Source: Raja brachyura (taxonomy: Eukaryota). From it: a stretch of 64,000 nt of DNA. Below, piece by piece: positions 10,034-56,191 of the stretch; the first letter of the stretch is position 1, and each line of letters opens with the position of its first letter. Where the stretch lies: assembly GCA_963514005.1 (NCBI GenBank), contig OY740781.1, forward strand, positions 170,438,001 to 170,502,000, in the 5' to 3' direction. The translations under genes were made by a program, and so were the position numbers. The notes beneath the pieces are model-generated. The model saw only the letters and a list, made by a program, of their open reading frames with translations, was not told where the DNA came from and ran no database searches.

Positions 10034-11380
10034 CCCACCAGTTCGCCTATCGCTGAAACAGGTCCACAGAAGACGCCATCACCGTAGCTCTCCACTCTGT
10101 GCTGAGCCACCTGGAGCAGGGGCAGAGCTACGTCCGGATGCTCTTTGTGGATTACAGCTCAGCTTTCAATACTATCATTCCGGACATTCTCATCGACAAA
10201 CTGGTCACTCTCGGCCTCCCCACTCTCACATGTGCCTGGATAAAGGACTTCCTCACCAACCGGCCCCAGACTGTGAGACTCGGCCCCCACCTCTCCTCCA
10301 CTCGCATGTTGAGTACCGGCTCCCGACAGGGCTGTGTGCTAAGCCCCCTCCTACACTGTCTCTACACCCACGACTGTAGTCCGGCCCACAACAACAACCG
10401 AATCATCAAGTTTGCTGACGACACTACAGTAGTCGGACTCATCTCAAGGGGAGATGAGGCAGCCTACAGAGAGGAAGTCCTGAAGTTGACAGCATGGTGC
10501 TCAGAAAACAACCTGGGTCTGAACACCAAGAAAACCAAAGAGCTCATTGTCAACTTCAGGAGGCACAGCACCGACTTAGCCCCCTTATACATCAACGGCG
10601 AGTGTGTGGAGAGGGTCCACACCTTCCGGTTTCTCGGCGTCCTCATCTCCACTGACATCTCGTGGACAGACAACATCACGGCGATCATTAAGAAGGCTCA
10701 GCAGCAGCTGCACTTCCTGAGGGTCCTCAGGAAGCACAACCTGGACTCCAACCTGCTGCTGACCTTCTACTGCTCGTCCATTGAGAGCCTGTTGACATAC
10801 TGCATTACATCATGGTACGGCAGCTGCACCATGGCAGACAGGGAGAGACTTCAGAGGGTAGTTAGGGCAGCACAGAAGATCATCGGCTGCCCTCTCCCCT
10901 CTCTGATAGACATTTACACCTCTCGCTGCCTCAGCAGGGCGAAGAACATTATCAAGGACAGCTCCCATCCTGCATTTGGCCTGTTCAACCTGCTACCCTC
11001 AGGGAGGCACTATAGGTGCATCAGCACAAGGACAAATAGACTCAAGAACAGTTTCTTTCCAAAATCCATTATCTCCCTGAACTCACCCATGCACTGACTT
11101 CACAGCCTAACCCCCGGACTTTCATTTATCCACCTACTGTAATTTGTACTGTAACTGTAATTTCCATTATGTGCAATAACCCATACTGGATATAGGAATC
11201 CTATTTATCCATTCTATTTATCCATTGTCTTTTTATAGATATGTATATTGCGCTGCAGAAACTGTGCGCCTTATTCCCCCCCCCCTTTTTTTGTTTTGTT
11301 TTGCACTGAGTAGGAGCAGCTTTTAATCTCATTGTACATGTGTATAGTGACAATAAAAGGCATTCTGATTCTGATTCTGA
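10034..11380 (+). mobile_element. Rex1/Babar LINE, 5'-truncated, relatively young
   Basis: RT motifs [37 protein letters not shown]; 3' gacaataaa followed by (attctg)n tail. Confidence 0.92.
10099..11097 (+). CDS. Reverse transcriptase C-terminal portion of the Rex1/Babar element (truncated, probably non-functional)
   Basis: 332-aa open frame with FADD catalytic motif; an in-frame TGA lies just upstream and the endonuclease half is missing. Confidence 0.75.
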
Positions 11381-12481
11381 AAACCTGGATTAGCCTTAAA
11401 TCTTTCCTTGTCCATCCTTTGATATGCACCTAACCTAGTATTCAAGCTTGTGGCATATCTGGTCAAACATCAGTACTCATTCTGTTGATGTTCAAGATTT
11501 GACAAGTAACCTGTTATTATGTCATTCATTCTTCCTCTGAAATCTATTGAAGCCATTTTCAAAAGAAAGAATGTTTACGTTGACTATTCCATCAAATACC
11601 AAATATCGATACTAGACTGCCTTCAGAGCCCATTTGGTTAAAGGACTCGTTACAGATTTTATTGAAATTTACTTGAAATCTGTTAGATTATGCTGTTGCA
11701 CCAAATTAGAATGTAGTTAATTTCAACATCAATCACGATGCATAAAGAACACAAGCTCTGTGTCATAATGCAAAACATTGAAAATCCAGTTTTTAAAGAA
11801 AATTATTTAAAATTTTCATTTGGTAAATTATATTTATTTATTTTGCCCATGATATTTTCATCAAAGAGTGAGTTATGAGGAATAATATTATGGATGGAAC
11901 TTGTATGGTTATGTTGTGCCCAGCATTAACATTGTTTTCTTTGGGTATAGACCACATTAAAATTAATTTTGCTTTGTTCACCCCACAATATGCTTTCAAA
12001 CCTCTTCCTAAAGAATCCTTTGTGGAATTAAATTGATTTCTCACTCTTGTCAGGCAATTGTTCCTCTGGCCTCTAACTGTAGCTGTTAATTAATGGCATA
12101 TAAAGGTCATTATGATATGCATGCAAGCTGCAGATGCCAAAAAATGTGAAACAAAAATAATAACAAAATCCTTGAAATGCACACATGACATGAAAGGATA
12201 GATGGAATTGAATTTATATCCTACATTATCACATTTTTTTAAAGTACATCAAATAAAATTATTTTTTATGAGCTGCATCCTTTAATACCACACAAGCAGA
12301 TGTGCCAATTATTTTGTACTCAACATGATCTATAAACTACAGTAAGATAAATGATCTGCTGATCTCACTAGTTTACATAATATTGTTAGTATTTACAGCC
12401 CCAAAACAGGCCGATTAGCACAATAGATATACTATTATCTATGCTATCCTGCTCCACACAGATGATCTTACAGCCTTCTTT

Positions 12482-12619
12482 CTTCTTCTTGCATATGGCG
12501 CGCACAGCCTAACGTTGTAGGACAACTTGTTCTATTTGATCTTATTTGATTGTGCACGCCAGGTTGATTGCATTAGTTGAAACAGGTGGACCACGTGAAG
12601 GTTGCAATCTTCCCACCCC
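12482..12619 (-). mobile_element. ~140-bp non-autonomous retroposon with HDV-like ribozyme head and (GAA)n tail, copy A
   Basis: Homologous to 55931-56068; TSD acagcc(t/c)tcttt at 12470-12481 and 12620-12631. Confidence 0.8.
12566..12619 (-). ncRNA. Predicted minimal HDV-like (CPEB3-type) ribozyme, copy A
   Basis: GGGGTGG gaa GATTGCA ACC TTCACGT GGT CCACCT G tttcaa CTAA TGCAATC = P1, P2, P3, L3, P3', P1', short linker, J4/2, P2'. Confidence 0.7.
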
Positions 12620-17413: not shown

Positions 17414-17735
17414 TTGGGGGAGTCCAGAACCAGGGGTCACAGTTTAAGAATAAGGGGTAGGCCATTTAGGACTGAGATGAGAAAAAACATTTTCACCCAG
17501 AGAGTTGTGAAACTGTGGAATTCTCTGCCACAGAAGGCAGTGGAGGCCAATTCACTGGATGCTGTCAAGAGAGAGTTAGATAGAGCTCTTAGGCCAAACA
17601 GAATCAAGGGATATGGGTAAAAGGCCGGAACGGGGTACTGATTTTAGATGATCAGCCATGATCACATTCAATGACGGTGCTGGCCCGAAGGGCCAAATGG
17701 CCTACTCCTGCATCTATTGTCTATGTTTCCATGTA
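17414..17735 (+). mobile_element. CR1 (HER1-like) 3' end
   Basis: GESRTRGHSLRIRGRPFRTEMRKNIFTQRVVKLWNSLP. Confidence 0.92.
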
Positions 17736-22345: not shown

Positions 22346-22992
22346 ATTTGATATCACTTTAACGGGAATGTGCTGCGTCATCTGTGAACTACTTTAGGTG
22401 CATTGAAGATCAACGATCTCTCGCCTTCAATGGAACAAATTTTAGAAATGTTGCATCTAACACAAAAAACTGCAGTGGCAAAAGGCCTCAATGTGTACTA
22501 ACACCTATGACAGACTTTTCAAAGTGGCAAGAATAAAGAAGTAACATGCCATTGTTACTTTTCCTGTACCCTGTGAGCATTCCTGAATAAAATCATGTTA
22601 ATCATTAAATAGACAGAGTATAGTTTGTAATTTGTACTGATTTATTGTCAATTTGACAATTTAAATTACTAGTCTATTGAGCTAAGTAACCAAACAAGAT
22701 GAAATTAAAACTGTGCATTAAGGATCCAAGGTTAAATTAGATTGTTTTACTTTGCCTATTGGTGCAATAAAAATCTCCACTATATCAAGGAAATTATGAT
22801 TAATGTGTGACAACCCAAGAATCCAGAAAAAATAAGTCCTTGAGCAGAACATACAGAGGAGACCCCTGACACTTGATATCCATCACAAAAATAATGGTCT
22901 TCTCCTGTTCCTATTCCAATGGATATAAGAAAAAGGTTGGAACCATCCGATCCTTGCAGCTTGATGCACTATTCAGTTAGATCGTTAATGAT

Positions 22993-23481
22993 CACCAGAT
23001 TGATTCCTGGGATGTCAGGACTGTCTTATGAAGAAAGACTGGATAGACTTGGTTTATACTCTCTAGAATTTAGGAGATTGAGAGGGGATCTTATAGAAAC
23101 TTACAAAATTCTTAAGGGGTTGGACAGGCTAGATGCAGGAAGATTGTTCCCGATGTTGGGGAGGTCCAGGACAAGGGGTCACAGCTTAAGGATAAGGGGG
23201 AAATCCTTTAGGACCGAGATGAGAAGGACTTTTTTCACACACAGAGTGGTGGGTCTCTGGAACTCTCTGCCACAGAGGGTAGTTGAGGCCAGTTCATTGG
23301 CTATATTTAAGAGGGAGTTAGATGTGGCCCTTGTGGCTAAGGGGATCAGAGGGTATGGAGAGAAGGCAGGTACAGGATACTGAGTTGGATGATTAGCCAT
23401 GATCATATTGAATGGCGGTGCAGGCTCGAAGGGCCGAATGGCCTACTCCTGCACCTAATTTCTATGTTTCTATGTTTCTAT
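22993..23481 (+). mobile_element. CR1 (HER1-like) 3' end, young
   Basis: Uninterrupted TRLIPGMSGLSYEERLDRLGLYSLEFRRLRGDLIETYK...; (tttctatg)n tail. Confidence 0.95.
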
Positions 23482-31269: not shown

Positions 31270-32222
31270 TTTCAATTCAATTCAATTCAACCTTTATTGT
31301 CTTTGTGCAGTGTACAATACAGACACAACCAAATGCAGTTGGTATCTCCGAAGGGCGAACTTACGAATGAATAAGTAATTGTGCAGTAGTATTGGTTAAT
31401 ATACGTCTATACATATACAGTGTCCGGGGGGGGGGGGGGGGGGGGGTGGAGACAGGCAGTCATTGAGGTGCAGCGTTGAGATGTGTGACAGCAGCAGGGA
31501 AGAAGCTGTTCTTGAACCTGCTGGTACGGCAGCGGAGGGACCTGCAGCGTCTCCCGGATGGGAGGAGGGTAAACAGTCTATGGTTGGGGTGTGAGCTGTC
31601 CCTGGCGATGATGTGCGCCTTGCGCAGGCATCGTTTACTATGGACAGACTCAATGGAGGGGAATGAGGAGCCTGTGATACGTTGGCGATCTTCACCACCC
31701 TCTGCAGAGCCTTCCGGTCGGCGACAGAACAGTTACCATACCATACTGTGATGCAGTTGGTAAGGATGCTCTCGATGGTGCAGCGGTAGAAGTTCACCAG
31801 AATCTGGGGAGACAGGTGGACCTTCTTAAGTCTCCTCAGGAAGAAGAGACGCTGGTGAGCCTTCATGATCAGCGAGGATGTGTTGTGGGTCCAGGTGAGG
31901 TCATCGGAGATGCTGACCCCCAGGAACCTGAAGCTGGAGACACGTTTCACCTCCGTCCCATTGATATGGATGGGGGTGTGCGTGCAGCCTCTCGATCTCC
32001 TGAAGTCCACAATGAGCTCCTTGGTCTTCTTGGAGTTGAGGGCCAGGTTATTGTTGGCACACCATGCTGATAGGAGCTGAACCTCCTCCCTGTAGGCCGA
32101 CTCATCATTGTCGCTGATGAGGCAAATCACCCTCGTGTCATCTGCGTACTTGATGATGGCGTTGTTACCATGTACAGGTATGCAGTCGTAGGTGAAGAGG
32201 GAGTAGAGGAGGGGGCTCAGGT
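31270..32222 (-). mobile_element. Rex1/Babar LINE, 5'-truncated
   Basis: [37 protein letters not shown]; gacaataaa followed by (ttgaa)n tail. Confidence 0.92.
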
Positions 32223-32490
32223 GAGGAGAAACTTCTCCTTTTTAGTCAGAGGGTTGTTAATCTGTGTAACCCATTGCCACAGAGGGCTGTGGAGGCCTAG
32301 TCAGTGGCTATTTTTAAGGCAGAGATAGACAAATTCTTGATTAGAACGGGTGTCACAGGTTATGGGGAGAAGGCAGAAAAGTGGGATTAGGAGGCAGATA
32401 TCAGCCATGATTGAATGGCGGAGTGGATTCGATGGGCTGAATGGCCTAATTCTACTCCTATAACTTGTGAACATGTGGAACTTGTGAAGT
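32223..32490 (+). mobile_element. CR1 3' end
   Basis: cagagggttgttaatctgtg...gggctgaatggcctaattctactcc. Confidence 0.85.
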
Positions 32491-45335: not shown

Positions 45336-46172
45336 AACATGGCAGATGCAGTTTAATGTGAATAAATGTGAGGTTATCCACTTTGGTGGCAAAAACAGGA
45401 AGGCAGATTATTATCTGAAGAGTGTCAAGTTGGGAAAAGGGGAAGTACAAAGAGATCTGGGTGTCCTTGATCAACAGTCAATGAAAGTAAGCATGCAGGT
45501 ACAGCAGGCAGCGAGGAATGCTAATGGCATGTTGACCTTCATAAAAGAGGAGTTGAGTATAGGAGCAAGTAGGTCCTTCTGCAGTTGCACAGGGCCCTAG
45601 TGAGATCATACCTGGAGTATTGTGTGCAGTTTGGTCTCCAAATTTGAGGAAGGGCATTCTTGCTATTGAGGGAGTGCAGCGTAGGTTCACAAGGTTAATT
45701 CCCAGGATGGCGGGACTGTCATATATTGATAGAATGGAGTGGCTGGGCTTGTATACTCTGGAATATAGAAGGATACGAGGGGATCTTATTGAAACATTTA
45801 AGATTATTAAGGGATTGGACACGCTAGAGGCAGGAAACATGTTCCCGATGTTGGGGGAGTCCAGAACCAGGGGCCACAGTTTAAGAATAAGGGGTAGGCC
45901 ATTTAGAATGGAGATTAACTTTTTTACCCAGAGAGTTGTGAATCTGTGGAATTCTCTGCCTCAGAAGGCAGTGAAGGCCAATTTTCTGGACGCTTTCAAG
46001 AGAGAGTTGGACAGAGCTCTTAAAGATAGCGGAGTCAGGGGATATGGTGAGAAGGCAGGAATGGGCTACTGAATGTGAATGATCAGCCATGATCACAGTG
46101 AATGGTGCTGCTGGCTCAAATGGCAAAATTGCCTACCCCTGCACCTATTGTCTATTGTCTATTGCCTATTGT
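45336..46172 (+). mobile_element. CR1 (HER1-like) 3' ~840 bp
   Basis: WQMQFNVNKCEVIHFG; AIEGVQRRFTRLIP; (tattgtc)n tail. Confidence 0.95.
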
Positions 46173-52029: not shown

Positions 52030-52796
52030 TCAGATTATTATTTAAATGGTGTCAAGTTGGGAAAAGGGAAAGTACAATGGAATCTGGGGGTCCTTGTTCA
52101 TCAGTCAATGAAAGTAAGCATGCAGGTGCAGCAGGCAGTGAAGAAAGCGAATGGCATGTTGGCCTTCATAACAAGAGGAGTTGAGGATAGGTGCAAAGAG
52201 GTCCTTCTGCAGTTGTATAGGGCACTAATGAAACCACAGCTGGAGTATTGTGTGCAGTTTTGGTCCACTAATTTGAGGAAGGACATTCTTGCTATTGAGG
52301 GAGTGCAGCTCAGGTTTACAAGGTTAATTCCCGGGATGGCGGGACTGTCATATGCTGAGAGAATGGCGCGGCTGGGCTTGTATACTCTGCAATTTAGAAG
52401 GATGAGAGGGCATTTATTGAAACATATAAGATTATTAAGGGTTTGGAAACACTAGAGGCAGAAGACATGTTCCCGATTTTGGGGGAGTCCAGAACCAGGC
52501 GCCACAGTTTAAGAATAAGGGATAAGCCATTTAGAACGGAGATGAGGAAACACTTTTTTACACAGAGTGGTGAGTCTGTGGAATTCTCTGCCTCAGAGGT
52601 TGGTTGAGGCTGGTTCTCTGGGTACTTTCAAGAGAAAGCTATATTGGGCTCTTAAAGAAAGTGGAGTCAGTGTATATGGGGATAAGGCAGGAACGGGGTA
52701 CTGAGTGGGGATGATCAGCCACGAACATAATGAATGGCGGTGCTGGCTCAAAGGGCTGAATGGCCTAGTCCTGCACCTATTGTCTATTGTCTATTT
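52030..52796 (+). mobile_element. CR1 (HER1-like) 3' region
   Basis: QQAVKKANGMLAFITRG, LEYCVQFWS; (tattgtc)n tail. Confidence 0.95.
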
Positions 52797-52916
52797 TCTC
52801 CAAGTGGCTCATACAAAATCACAACATTTGGGGGCTCAGTCGGGATATGGTCCTGATCTAATATGTGGCCAGTTACTTCAGCAGTCTAAGGGGGTAAATA
52901 TTTTTATGTGTAGCAC

Positions 52917-55632: not shown

Positions 55633-55930
55633 ATGATATTTACTAGCAGTTATATTCTCAGGCATTGTTAGAGCTTATGAATTTGGTCTTCCTTCGTGGC
55701 AGAAACTGTACCATGAGAAGTAAATCTCATCCATGTAAATAGGTATTAAATAGTGATTAAGACCAAGGCCGATTGTGTAAAGTATAATACATGAGTCACA
55801 ACAATTGCTTGGATGGGAAATACTGCGGGAAGGCAGTGAGATGATGGGAGAGTGGTCCCAAGAGTTAATGAGCAATTGATCTCTTTGGGATGCAACGAAA
55901 GGAAGTAAAAGGGAGATATGGAGACACAAG

Positions 55931-55984
55931 GGGGTGGAAGATTGCAACCTTCACGGGGTCTGCCCCGTTTCGACTAATGCGATC
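55931..55984 (+). ncRNA. Predicted minimal HDV-like (CPEB3-type) ribozyme, copy B
   Basis: GGGGTGG aa GATTGCA ACC TTCACGG GGT CTGCCCC G tttcga CTAA TGCGATC; all four helices pair allowing G-U. Confidence 0.7.
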
Positions 55985-56068
55985 AACTCGATGTGCACAA
56001 ACGGAAGATCAAGTAGAACAAGTAGAACAACAACTTTAGGCTGTGCACATCACAAAAGAAGAAGAAGA
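55931..56068 (+). mobile_element. ~140-bp non-autonomous retroposon with HDV-like ribozyme head and (GAA)n tail, copy B
   Basis: Homologous to 12482-12619; TSD ggagaca(c/t)aagg at 55920-55931 and 56069-56080. Confidence 0.8.
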
Positions 56069-56191
56069 GGAGACATAAGGAACTGCTGATGCTGAAATCT
56101 TGAAAAAAAACAACAAAATAAGGTCATAAGGTCATAAGTGACAGGAGCAGAATGCGGCCATTCGACTCATCAAGTCTACTTCGCCATTCGC

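Follow-up and report, generated by a model that had tools for sequence, protein, structure and literature searches.

A short retroposon family of Raja brachyura headed by a predicted P4-less HDV-like ribozyme and derived from the two ends of a probable Vingi LINE

The element at the locus

The window (the whole 64-kb stretch of Raja brachyura DNA that we analysed) contains at 55931..56068, on the plus strand, a 138-base retroposon that we refer to as copy B. Its first 54 nt (55931..55984, plus strand) form, as judged with a descriptor and with alignments of the family and of the wider clade, a predicted P4-less HDV-like ribozyme. Specifically, P1 pairs 55931-37 with 55960-66 (GGGGTGG with CTGCCCC), P2 pairs 55940-46 with 55978-84, P3 pairs 55947-49 with 55957-59 around an L3 loop at 55950-56, and P1.1 is the single pair C55952-G55967. 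G55967 and a 6-nt linker precede CTAA (55974-77), whose first base, C55974, is the predicted catalytic cytosine, and the predicted cleavage site lies directly 5′ of 55931. An earlier reading of this DNA made from its letters only (the sequence-only reading) had claimed the same arrangement, and every ribozyme segment, as well as the 84 nt that follow P2′ and end in (GAA)n, sits where it was placed; the helix order is indeed that of the nested double pseudoknot of HDV-like ribozymes (P1, P2, P3 and P1.1), and P4, which was said to be reduced in a ribozyme of about 54 nt, is absent.

Downstream of the fold the plus strand carries the remainder of a 5′ part that, by comparison with the LINE described below, is the start of the 5′ UTR of that LINE (55985..56009) and that includes the 5′ strand of a predicted helix between the two ends of the element (55990..55999). 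There follow a deletion junction (56010..56029), which comparisons that include the related short element L103 suggest is a short stretch of LINE 5′ sequence duplicated locally; a LINE-derived 3′ end (56030..56057) that comprises the last ORF codons, a TAG stop (56037-39) and the 3′ UTR, with the 3′ strand of the predicted end-to-end helix at 56042..56051; and a (GAA)n tail (56058..56068). On either side of the element lie target site duplications (TSDs), at 55920..55930 and 56069..56079. The duplication that had been described as 12 bp long is real, but it contains one mismatch and reaches 12 bp only when G55931 is counted as its last base; if G55931 is the first base of the element, the TSD is 11 bp long with 10 of 11 positions matching.

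The head of copy B is the 5′ end of a LINE, and no Pol III SINE head (tRNA, 5S or 7SL, with A and B boxes) is present. The claim that Pol III boxes are missing holds for the A box, which is absent within one mismatch, but not strictly for the B box, since a loose B-box-like 9-mer is present in copy B and in no other copy. A second copy in the window (copy A; 12480..12619, minus strand) belongs to another subfamily, is 79% identical to copy B and has a TSD of its own; its P1′ is one base short. We note that copy B lies where an older, abundant repeat ends (window 55920-56100), and that RT fragments from further LINE families, along with numerous short repeat families, fill the window (10057-11097 on the plus strand, 31396-32241 on the minus strand, 17414-17734, 22895-23475, 45563-46165 and 52319-52799). 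No host gene is evident by eye among the 23 open frames of at least 130 aa in the window.

Our strict ribozyme descriptor missed copy B because the L3 of this copy ends in G. When the descriptor was relaxed to admit it, copy B was the sole match in the 64-kb window, and a search of both strands after shuffling the 64 kb 150 times with dinucleotides preserved gave 0 matches. Compared with the column majority of its family (numbering from the first base, G1), copy B has four substitutions in the ribozyme (T26G, in L3, C31T, T36C and A51G), and in its lowest-energy fold L3 is paired with P1′ and P1 is not formed. As modelled, copy B is probably a dead, misfolding copy; the four substitutions and the predicted pairing of L3 with P1′ make it a poor candidate for a cleavage assay.

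The short family and its parent LINE

A 20-nt pattern from the ribozyme core has 13,002 exact matches in the 2.7-Gb genome and a 21-nt pattern from the 3′ end has 7,154. From the overlap of the two patterns in the first 19.6 Mb of contig 1 we estimate that the short family has about 19,000-25,000 copies, which is probably a lower bound. For a sample of the family we fetched 89 of the first 100 places that match the 3′ pattern (11 in a tandem cluster were skipped) and dropped three duplicates; the remaining 86 places comprise 76 short elements with a 5′ part, 3 LINE 3′ ends and 7 elements that are truncated or interrupted. The copies are dispersed, end in a simple-repeat tail and have TSDs of variable length, as is the hallmark of target-primed reverse transcription (TPRT), and in 60 of 73 short copies a TSD of 8-21 bp ends at most 3 nt from G1. 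Several arrangements of copies were also observed: an inverted pair with identical flanks whose members are separated by about 60 kb (L077/L078), a segmental array in tandem that holds two element copies in each unit (G000:C1:14.79-14.96 Mb), and short copies inserted in a copy of their own LINE or near an RTE-type element (L151:2302-2440 and L339:419-558).

Three of the loci found with the 3′ motif contain, upstream of it, a C-terminal CxCG..QT..H..C frame that ends at the TAG still present in the short element. Copies of this LINE start with the same P4-less ribozyme and diverge from the short element after about nt 72-79 into a 5′ UTR followed by an APE frame; one locus (L333) holds ribozyme, ORF remnants and tail in a single 3.1-kb span. 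The short element shares about 79 nt with the LINE at its 5′ end and about 40 nt at its 3′ end, with the interior deleted. These sequence comparisons identify the 138-base element as a bipartite derivative that arose by deletion from a 3.1-kb LINE, now dead, of the same genome. In three short elements (L063, L094 and L103) the two LINE ends are joined at different junctions, so that the deletion must have occurred repeatedly; the junction of L103 resembles an intermediate on the way to the main one. These findings bear out the proposal that the family depends on an autonomous LINE that shares both of its ends. The accompanying description of the family as SINE-like falls short, since the element has no independent head: head and tail are both LINE-derived, as in a SIDE.

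No LINE copy that we examined is intact; over 30 loci, open frames reach at most 350 aa. The closest intact relative, P0001, has 1,019 aa, is 68% identical and contains an endonuclease and an RT without RNase H, and the architecture of the LINE is a single ORF with APE plus RT, no RNase H, in about 3.1 kb. A midpoint-rooted tree built from 167 RT columns, with one short row left out and without named reference elements, places the LINE in a 14-row clade (support 95/99) together with two other families of this genome and with metagenome elements; RNase-H-bearing elements fall outside this clade, and the node next to it is poorly supported. The genome also contains a DUF6451-bearing family that, from its motifs, we take to be RTE-type. 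This family occupies a long separate branch far from the LINE, its RT segments are 27-33% identical to P0001, and none of its 12 loci shares either end with the LINE, except for one into which a whole copy is inserted. Having APE and RT but no RNase H, and lying apart from the RTE-type family, the LINE is most likely a Vingi element, and the RTE partner named in the sequence-only reading has to be replaced by a member of this RNase-H-less APE-RT clade. PDB matches are to L1 and R2 only; in the ESM Atlas the C-terminal part matched only unnamed clusters, and the cluster of P0001 is likewise without names.

The published Vingi LINEs have the same features, namely a single ORF, APE and RT, no RNase H, a length of about 3.1 kb and bipartite derivatives (PMC5786205, PMC13708176). 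In further support of the assignment, which rests otherwise on architecture and on the reference-free tree, the 5′ end of Vingi-2_Gav as printed in the supplement of PMC5786205 agrees by eye with that of a metagenome member of the clade (L270) at 34 of 36 nt. Vingi is absent from the clades listed as ribozyme-bearing in the portion of PMC5786205 (Kojima 2018) that we could consult.

The short family is thus a ribozyme-headed SIDE, that is, a bipartite non-autonomous LINE, which is a known design. The R2 SIDEs of Drosophila likewise join a 5′ HDV-like ribozyme to a LINE 3′ end and are mobilised in trans; they derive from the RLE-type, 28S-specific R2, have a large ribozyme and are rare (PMC3414825), whereas the family described here is APE-type and dispersed, with about 20,000 copies and a predicted ribozyme of 54 nt. 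NARTc, RIME and SIDER, from the L1Tc/ingi elements of trypanosomes, a probable sister clade, also have a ribozyme at nt 1 with a single-pair P1.1, TSDs of about 12 bp and the form of short, internally deleted derivatives (PMC3185411, PMC4035085). Theirs cleave in vitro, and they differ in that P4 is kept (77 nt), the LINE has RNase H and the Pr77 sequence is also a promoter (PMC3185411, PMC4035085).

Conservation of the predicted ribozyme and the origin of the 5′ end

The short family consists of at least two subfamilies. Its majority L3 is TTCACGT, a G1-U wobble is present in 61 of 73 copies, and C44 is kept in 71 of 73, followed by a variable position 45 and then AA; J1/2 and the choice of U-A or U-G in P1 vary as well, the latter pair being U-A in the LINE and mostly U-G in the short copies. 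C44, A46, A47, G37, L3 and G1-U are each intact in the majority of copies, and all 17 pairs together with L3, G37 and C44-N-A-A are intact in 22 of 73. Copies decay neutrally, with a non-CpG divergence of 4.1% in the ribozyme and 5.5% in the body, and there is no recurrent two-sided pair change among the 73 copies. Conservation of the ribozyme hardly exceeds that of the body and two-sided changes are lacking, so that the family by itself gives no sign that the loss of P4 is tolerated.

Covariation, which the sequence-only reading had named as a check on the fold, is found across families of the clade but not within the short family. When five clade families are aligned on the fold, 85 of 85 cells are paired and 12 of 17 pairs are changed on both sides, an outcome reached in 0 of 5000 shuffles, in a test that was fitted to the descriptor. 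In a structure-blind, gap-free alignment of five rows, two of which come from the short family, P1 and P3 are 100% paired and 6 of 12 pairs are two-sided (1 of 500 shuffles). At P1.1, the second J1/4 base is G wherever position 21 is C and is U in three of the four families with U21, and L330 has U22-A in place of C22-G. The primary sequence of P1 and P2 therefore turns over between families with pairing kept, which argues for selection on RNA structure. The fold begins at the TSD boundary in three clade members (L250, L270 and L330), and it is present upstream of the ORF in 6 of 26 metagenome loci, two of the six being one family and many of the 26 being without a 5′ end or from another clade; the opposite strand gave weak or no matches. 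Two more clade families of the genome, represented by L330 (G000:C1:168996500-169001000, minus strand), L331 and L332, have HDV-like ribozymes of their own with P4. By eye, L221:1-276 shows P1-like strands and a long perfect hairpin with no P3/L3 of normal size, and is possibly a variant or decayed ribozyme.

P4 is absent only in the short family and its LINE, as the other clade members that could be parsed keep at least 21 nt at this place. The Rfam models for HDV and CPEB3 ribozymes, which include P4, do not recover the short family at their cut-offs, a check that the sequence-only reading had named: a scan of the window returned no family at its cut-off, and a majority-like copy scored 16 bits (E=1.3) on HDV-F-prausnitzii. 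Among clade members, L270 and L271 score 55.6 bits on the CPEB3 model (RF00622; cut-off 35), L250 and L227 are weak HDV-F-prausnitzii matches, and L336 (a copy of the LINE), L330, L234 and L284 have no Rfam ribozyme match. Nested-fold energies of the 54-mer, from a program without a pseudoknot model, do not stand out from those of shuffles (z -0.9 to +0.7). The 7-bp P1 starts at the RNA 5′ terminus with G1-U or G1-C, and the design as a whole is that of the minimal HDV-like, or theta, ribozymes, which have no P4, are cut before G1 and have the catalytic C first in J4/2 (PMC10879173). Nearly 99% of those are from phages, often after tRNAs, whereas the present fold heads an animal retroposon; the eukaryotes covered by the survey are human, mouse and protists (PMC10879173).

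The pile-up of 5′ ends at the first G of P1, which the sequence-only reading took as a test of its proposal, is present: the alignment starts at G1 in 64 of the 76 short copies, chosen by their 3′ motif alone, and within nt 1-5 in 73. In four runs from three organisms, too, contigs diverge from the element at G1 (43, 25, 10 and 5 loose ends); these contigs are assemblies and carry no transcript start, strand or level. The LINE copies (L191-L220) are more ragged, 5 of 23 beginning at G1 and 14 of 23 at most 5 nt from it, and 11 of 23 have inverted LINE sequence immediately upstream, which fits twin priming extended to the RNA 5′ terminus.

The short family thus combines a bipartite origin, the hallmarks of TPRT, a sharp start at G1 and a conserved HDV-like fold. 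We consider it likely that it is a two-ended LINE derivative whose predicted P4-less ribozyme frees the RNA at G1 and whose RNA is copied back by the protein of the LINE. According to this proposal, host read-through transcription would supply the RNA, and the ribozyme would cleave just before G1 by means of C44 and leave an uncapped 5′-OH end. The bases after the ribozyme would then pair with those before the ACG-(GAA)n end, the LINE protein would recognise this end-to-end helix, which would be why both ends must be kept, and TPRT in trans would create TSDs of 8-15 bp. L1 junctions can carry a cap-derived G, and on this basis the base at position -1 can be read as a sign of an uncapped template. 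Among the 64 full-length copies G is found at -1 in 12, with no excess over a background of 23%; T occupies the position in 32 copies and A in 6, each with p about 1e-4 when compared with the composition of the flanks. That G is not enriched there and T is tends to speak against a capped template. The T/A bias lies partly inside the TSD and is partly untemplated.

The same pile-up at G1 would be produced by an internal RNA polymerase II promoter that fires at +1 and sets the 5′ end, the fold being secondary or redundant. There is precedent for this arrangement, against which the sequence-only reading's description of the family as promoterless has to be weighed, in that the first 77 nt of L1Tc are both promoter and ribozyme (PMC3185411) and that bipartite LINEs are expected to be transcribed by Pol II (PMC5786205). 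We nevertheless regard such a promoter as an unlikely explanation, as the turnover of P1 and P2 sequence between families with pairing retained speaks against it, as does the lack of a G excess at -1.

Another possibility is that the loss of P4 ended or crippled catalysis and that the fold now serves as a 5′ shield or a protein-binding site, the 5′ end being set where RT or an exonuclease stops at the pseudoknot. The retention of P4 in the rest of the clade and the ragged 5′ ends of the LINE copies would fit, and in R2 a stable HDV fold guards the template against 5′ decay (PMC13708176). A further point against our proposal is that, judging from the sequence, U38-UUCG-A43 together with the pair G37-C44 could fold into a small hairpin in which the catalytic C would be tied up. 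On the other side, P4-less HDV-like ribozymes are active in vitro (PMC10879173), C44, A46, A47, G37, L3 and G1-U are intact in the majority copies and in the LINE, and an RT stop would be expected on the fold's 3′ side and not at G1, so that we hold a shield without cleavage to be improbable too. Mobilisation of a SINE-like element by an RTE LINE, for which the GAA tail, the variable TSDs, the presence of an RTE-type family in the genome and the HDV-like ribozymes and bipartite derivatives reported for RTE (PMC5786205) might be adduced, is very improbable given that the LINE sharing both ends belongs to another clade and that the RTE-type family is distant in its RT and shares neither end.

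The predicted end-to-end helix and the CPEB3 ribozyme

The bases after P2′ are complementary to those before the ACG-plus-repeat tail, a feature first seen by eye in the same elements that were then tested. The predicted helix has 10 bp in copy B and 11 bp in a subfamily A copy, and its core is palindromic. For six families and 40-nt windows, the cognate assignment of 5′ to 3′ ends ranks 1 of 720, the cognate partner coming first in all six columns and in five of the six rows, with one family represented by two contigs that are 84% identical. When two held-out elements were added and wide windows used, the cognate assignment of the eight ranked 3 to 110 of 40,320 over four window choices, as compared with 1,564 to 37,594 of 40,320 for 20 shifted controls; for the held-out L232 the cognate pairing has -25.6 kcal/mol and the others -7 to -12. 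The signal of the short family alone is weak (p=0.17; -13.5 kcal/mol against -14.0 for one non-cognate pairing). Bipartite derivatives are known from RTE, Ingi, Vingi and R2 only, and why so few clades make them is stated as unknown in Kojima 2018 (PMC5786205). The modelled helix could explain the bipartite derivatives of Vingi.

The clade also has a link to the mammalian CPEB3 ribozyme (RF00622), which has the same L3 (UUCACGU), GU at J1/4 and a G1-U pair, and whose Rfam cut-off is passed by a clade member. It differs from the short family in being a single intronic copy with P4, and the ribozyme of the short family has no match to RF00622. By eye, the Rfam consensus of CPEB3 and the printed start of Vingi-2_Gav share 38 of 40 nt up to and including the base of P4, as well as 13 of 13 nt at J4/2-P2′, and the agreeing positions differ freely among other clade members. 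This agreement in sequence suggests that the CPEB3 ribozyme may derive from Vingi. In the main text of a paper on CPEB3 evolution (PMC8233481), neither 'origin' nor 'transpos' occurs. The matches to the CPEB3 model lie on metagenome contigs (L270:3117-3190 and L271:2199-2272), where a complete 3.2-kb clade element with a TSD begins with a sequence that passes the CPEB3 cut-off (55.6 bits). The middle of the alligator element SINE2-1_AMi, described as Vingi-derived in the supplement of PMC5786205, can be parsed by eye into a CPEB3-like ribozyme, and at the element's 3′ end, labelled 'unknown', a short hairpin precedes ACACGA, which clade members carry as their 3′ signature; from its printed sequence it may be a bipartite Vingi SINE.

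A broader reading, which we put forward tentatively and consider somewhat doubtful, is that CPEB3-type ribozymes and an end-to-end helix read by the element's own protein would be general to Vingi, that an active 54-nt P4-less ribozyme would have been spread by this family over thousands of places in this genome, and that the CPEB3 ribozyme would be a domesticated ancient Vingi 5′ end. Vingi would then give rise to two-ended derivatives because the helix between 5′ UTR and 3′ end is what its protein reads. Our literature search, which took in neither patents, Repbase and Dfam nor most subscription papers, turned up no account of ribozymes in Vingi, of an end-to-end helix or of a derivation of CPEB3 from Vingi; earlier literature may cover the Vingi ribozyme under other names.

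The family places a predicted P4-less HDV-like ribozyme, a form reported almost only from phages (PMC10879173), in an animal genome. We estimate about 1,800 fold-intact copies in the genome (22 of the 86 sampled places, applied to the 7,154 places), and these, if active, could cut host pre-mRNAs. The end-to-end helix, if true, would allow a direct test of why only RTE, Ingi, Vingi and R2 form bipartite derivatives, and Vingi-1 is used in gene writing together with a template that carries both UTRs (PMC13708176). If the origin proposed for it is true, the CPEB3 ribozyme, which is tied to memory in mammals, would have originated from a retrotransposon of a named clade.
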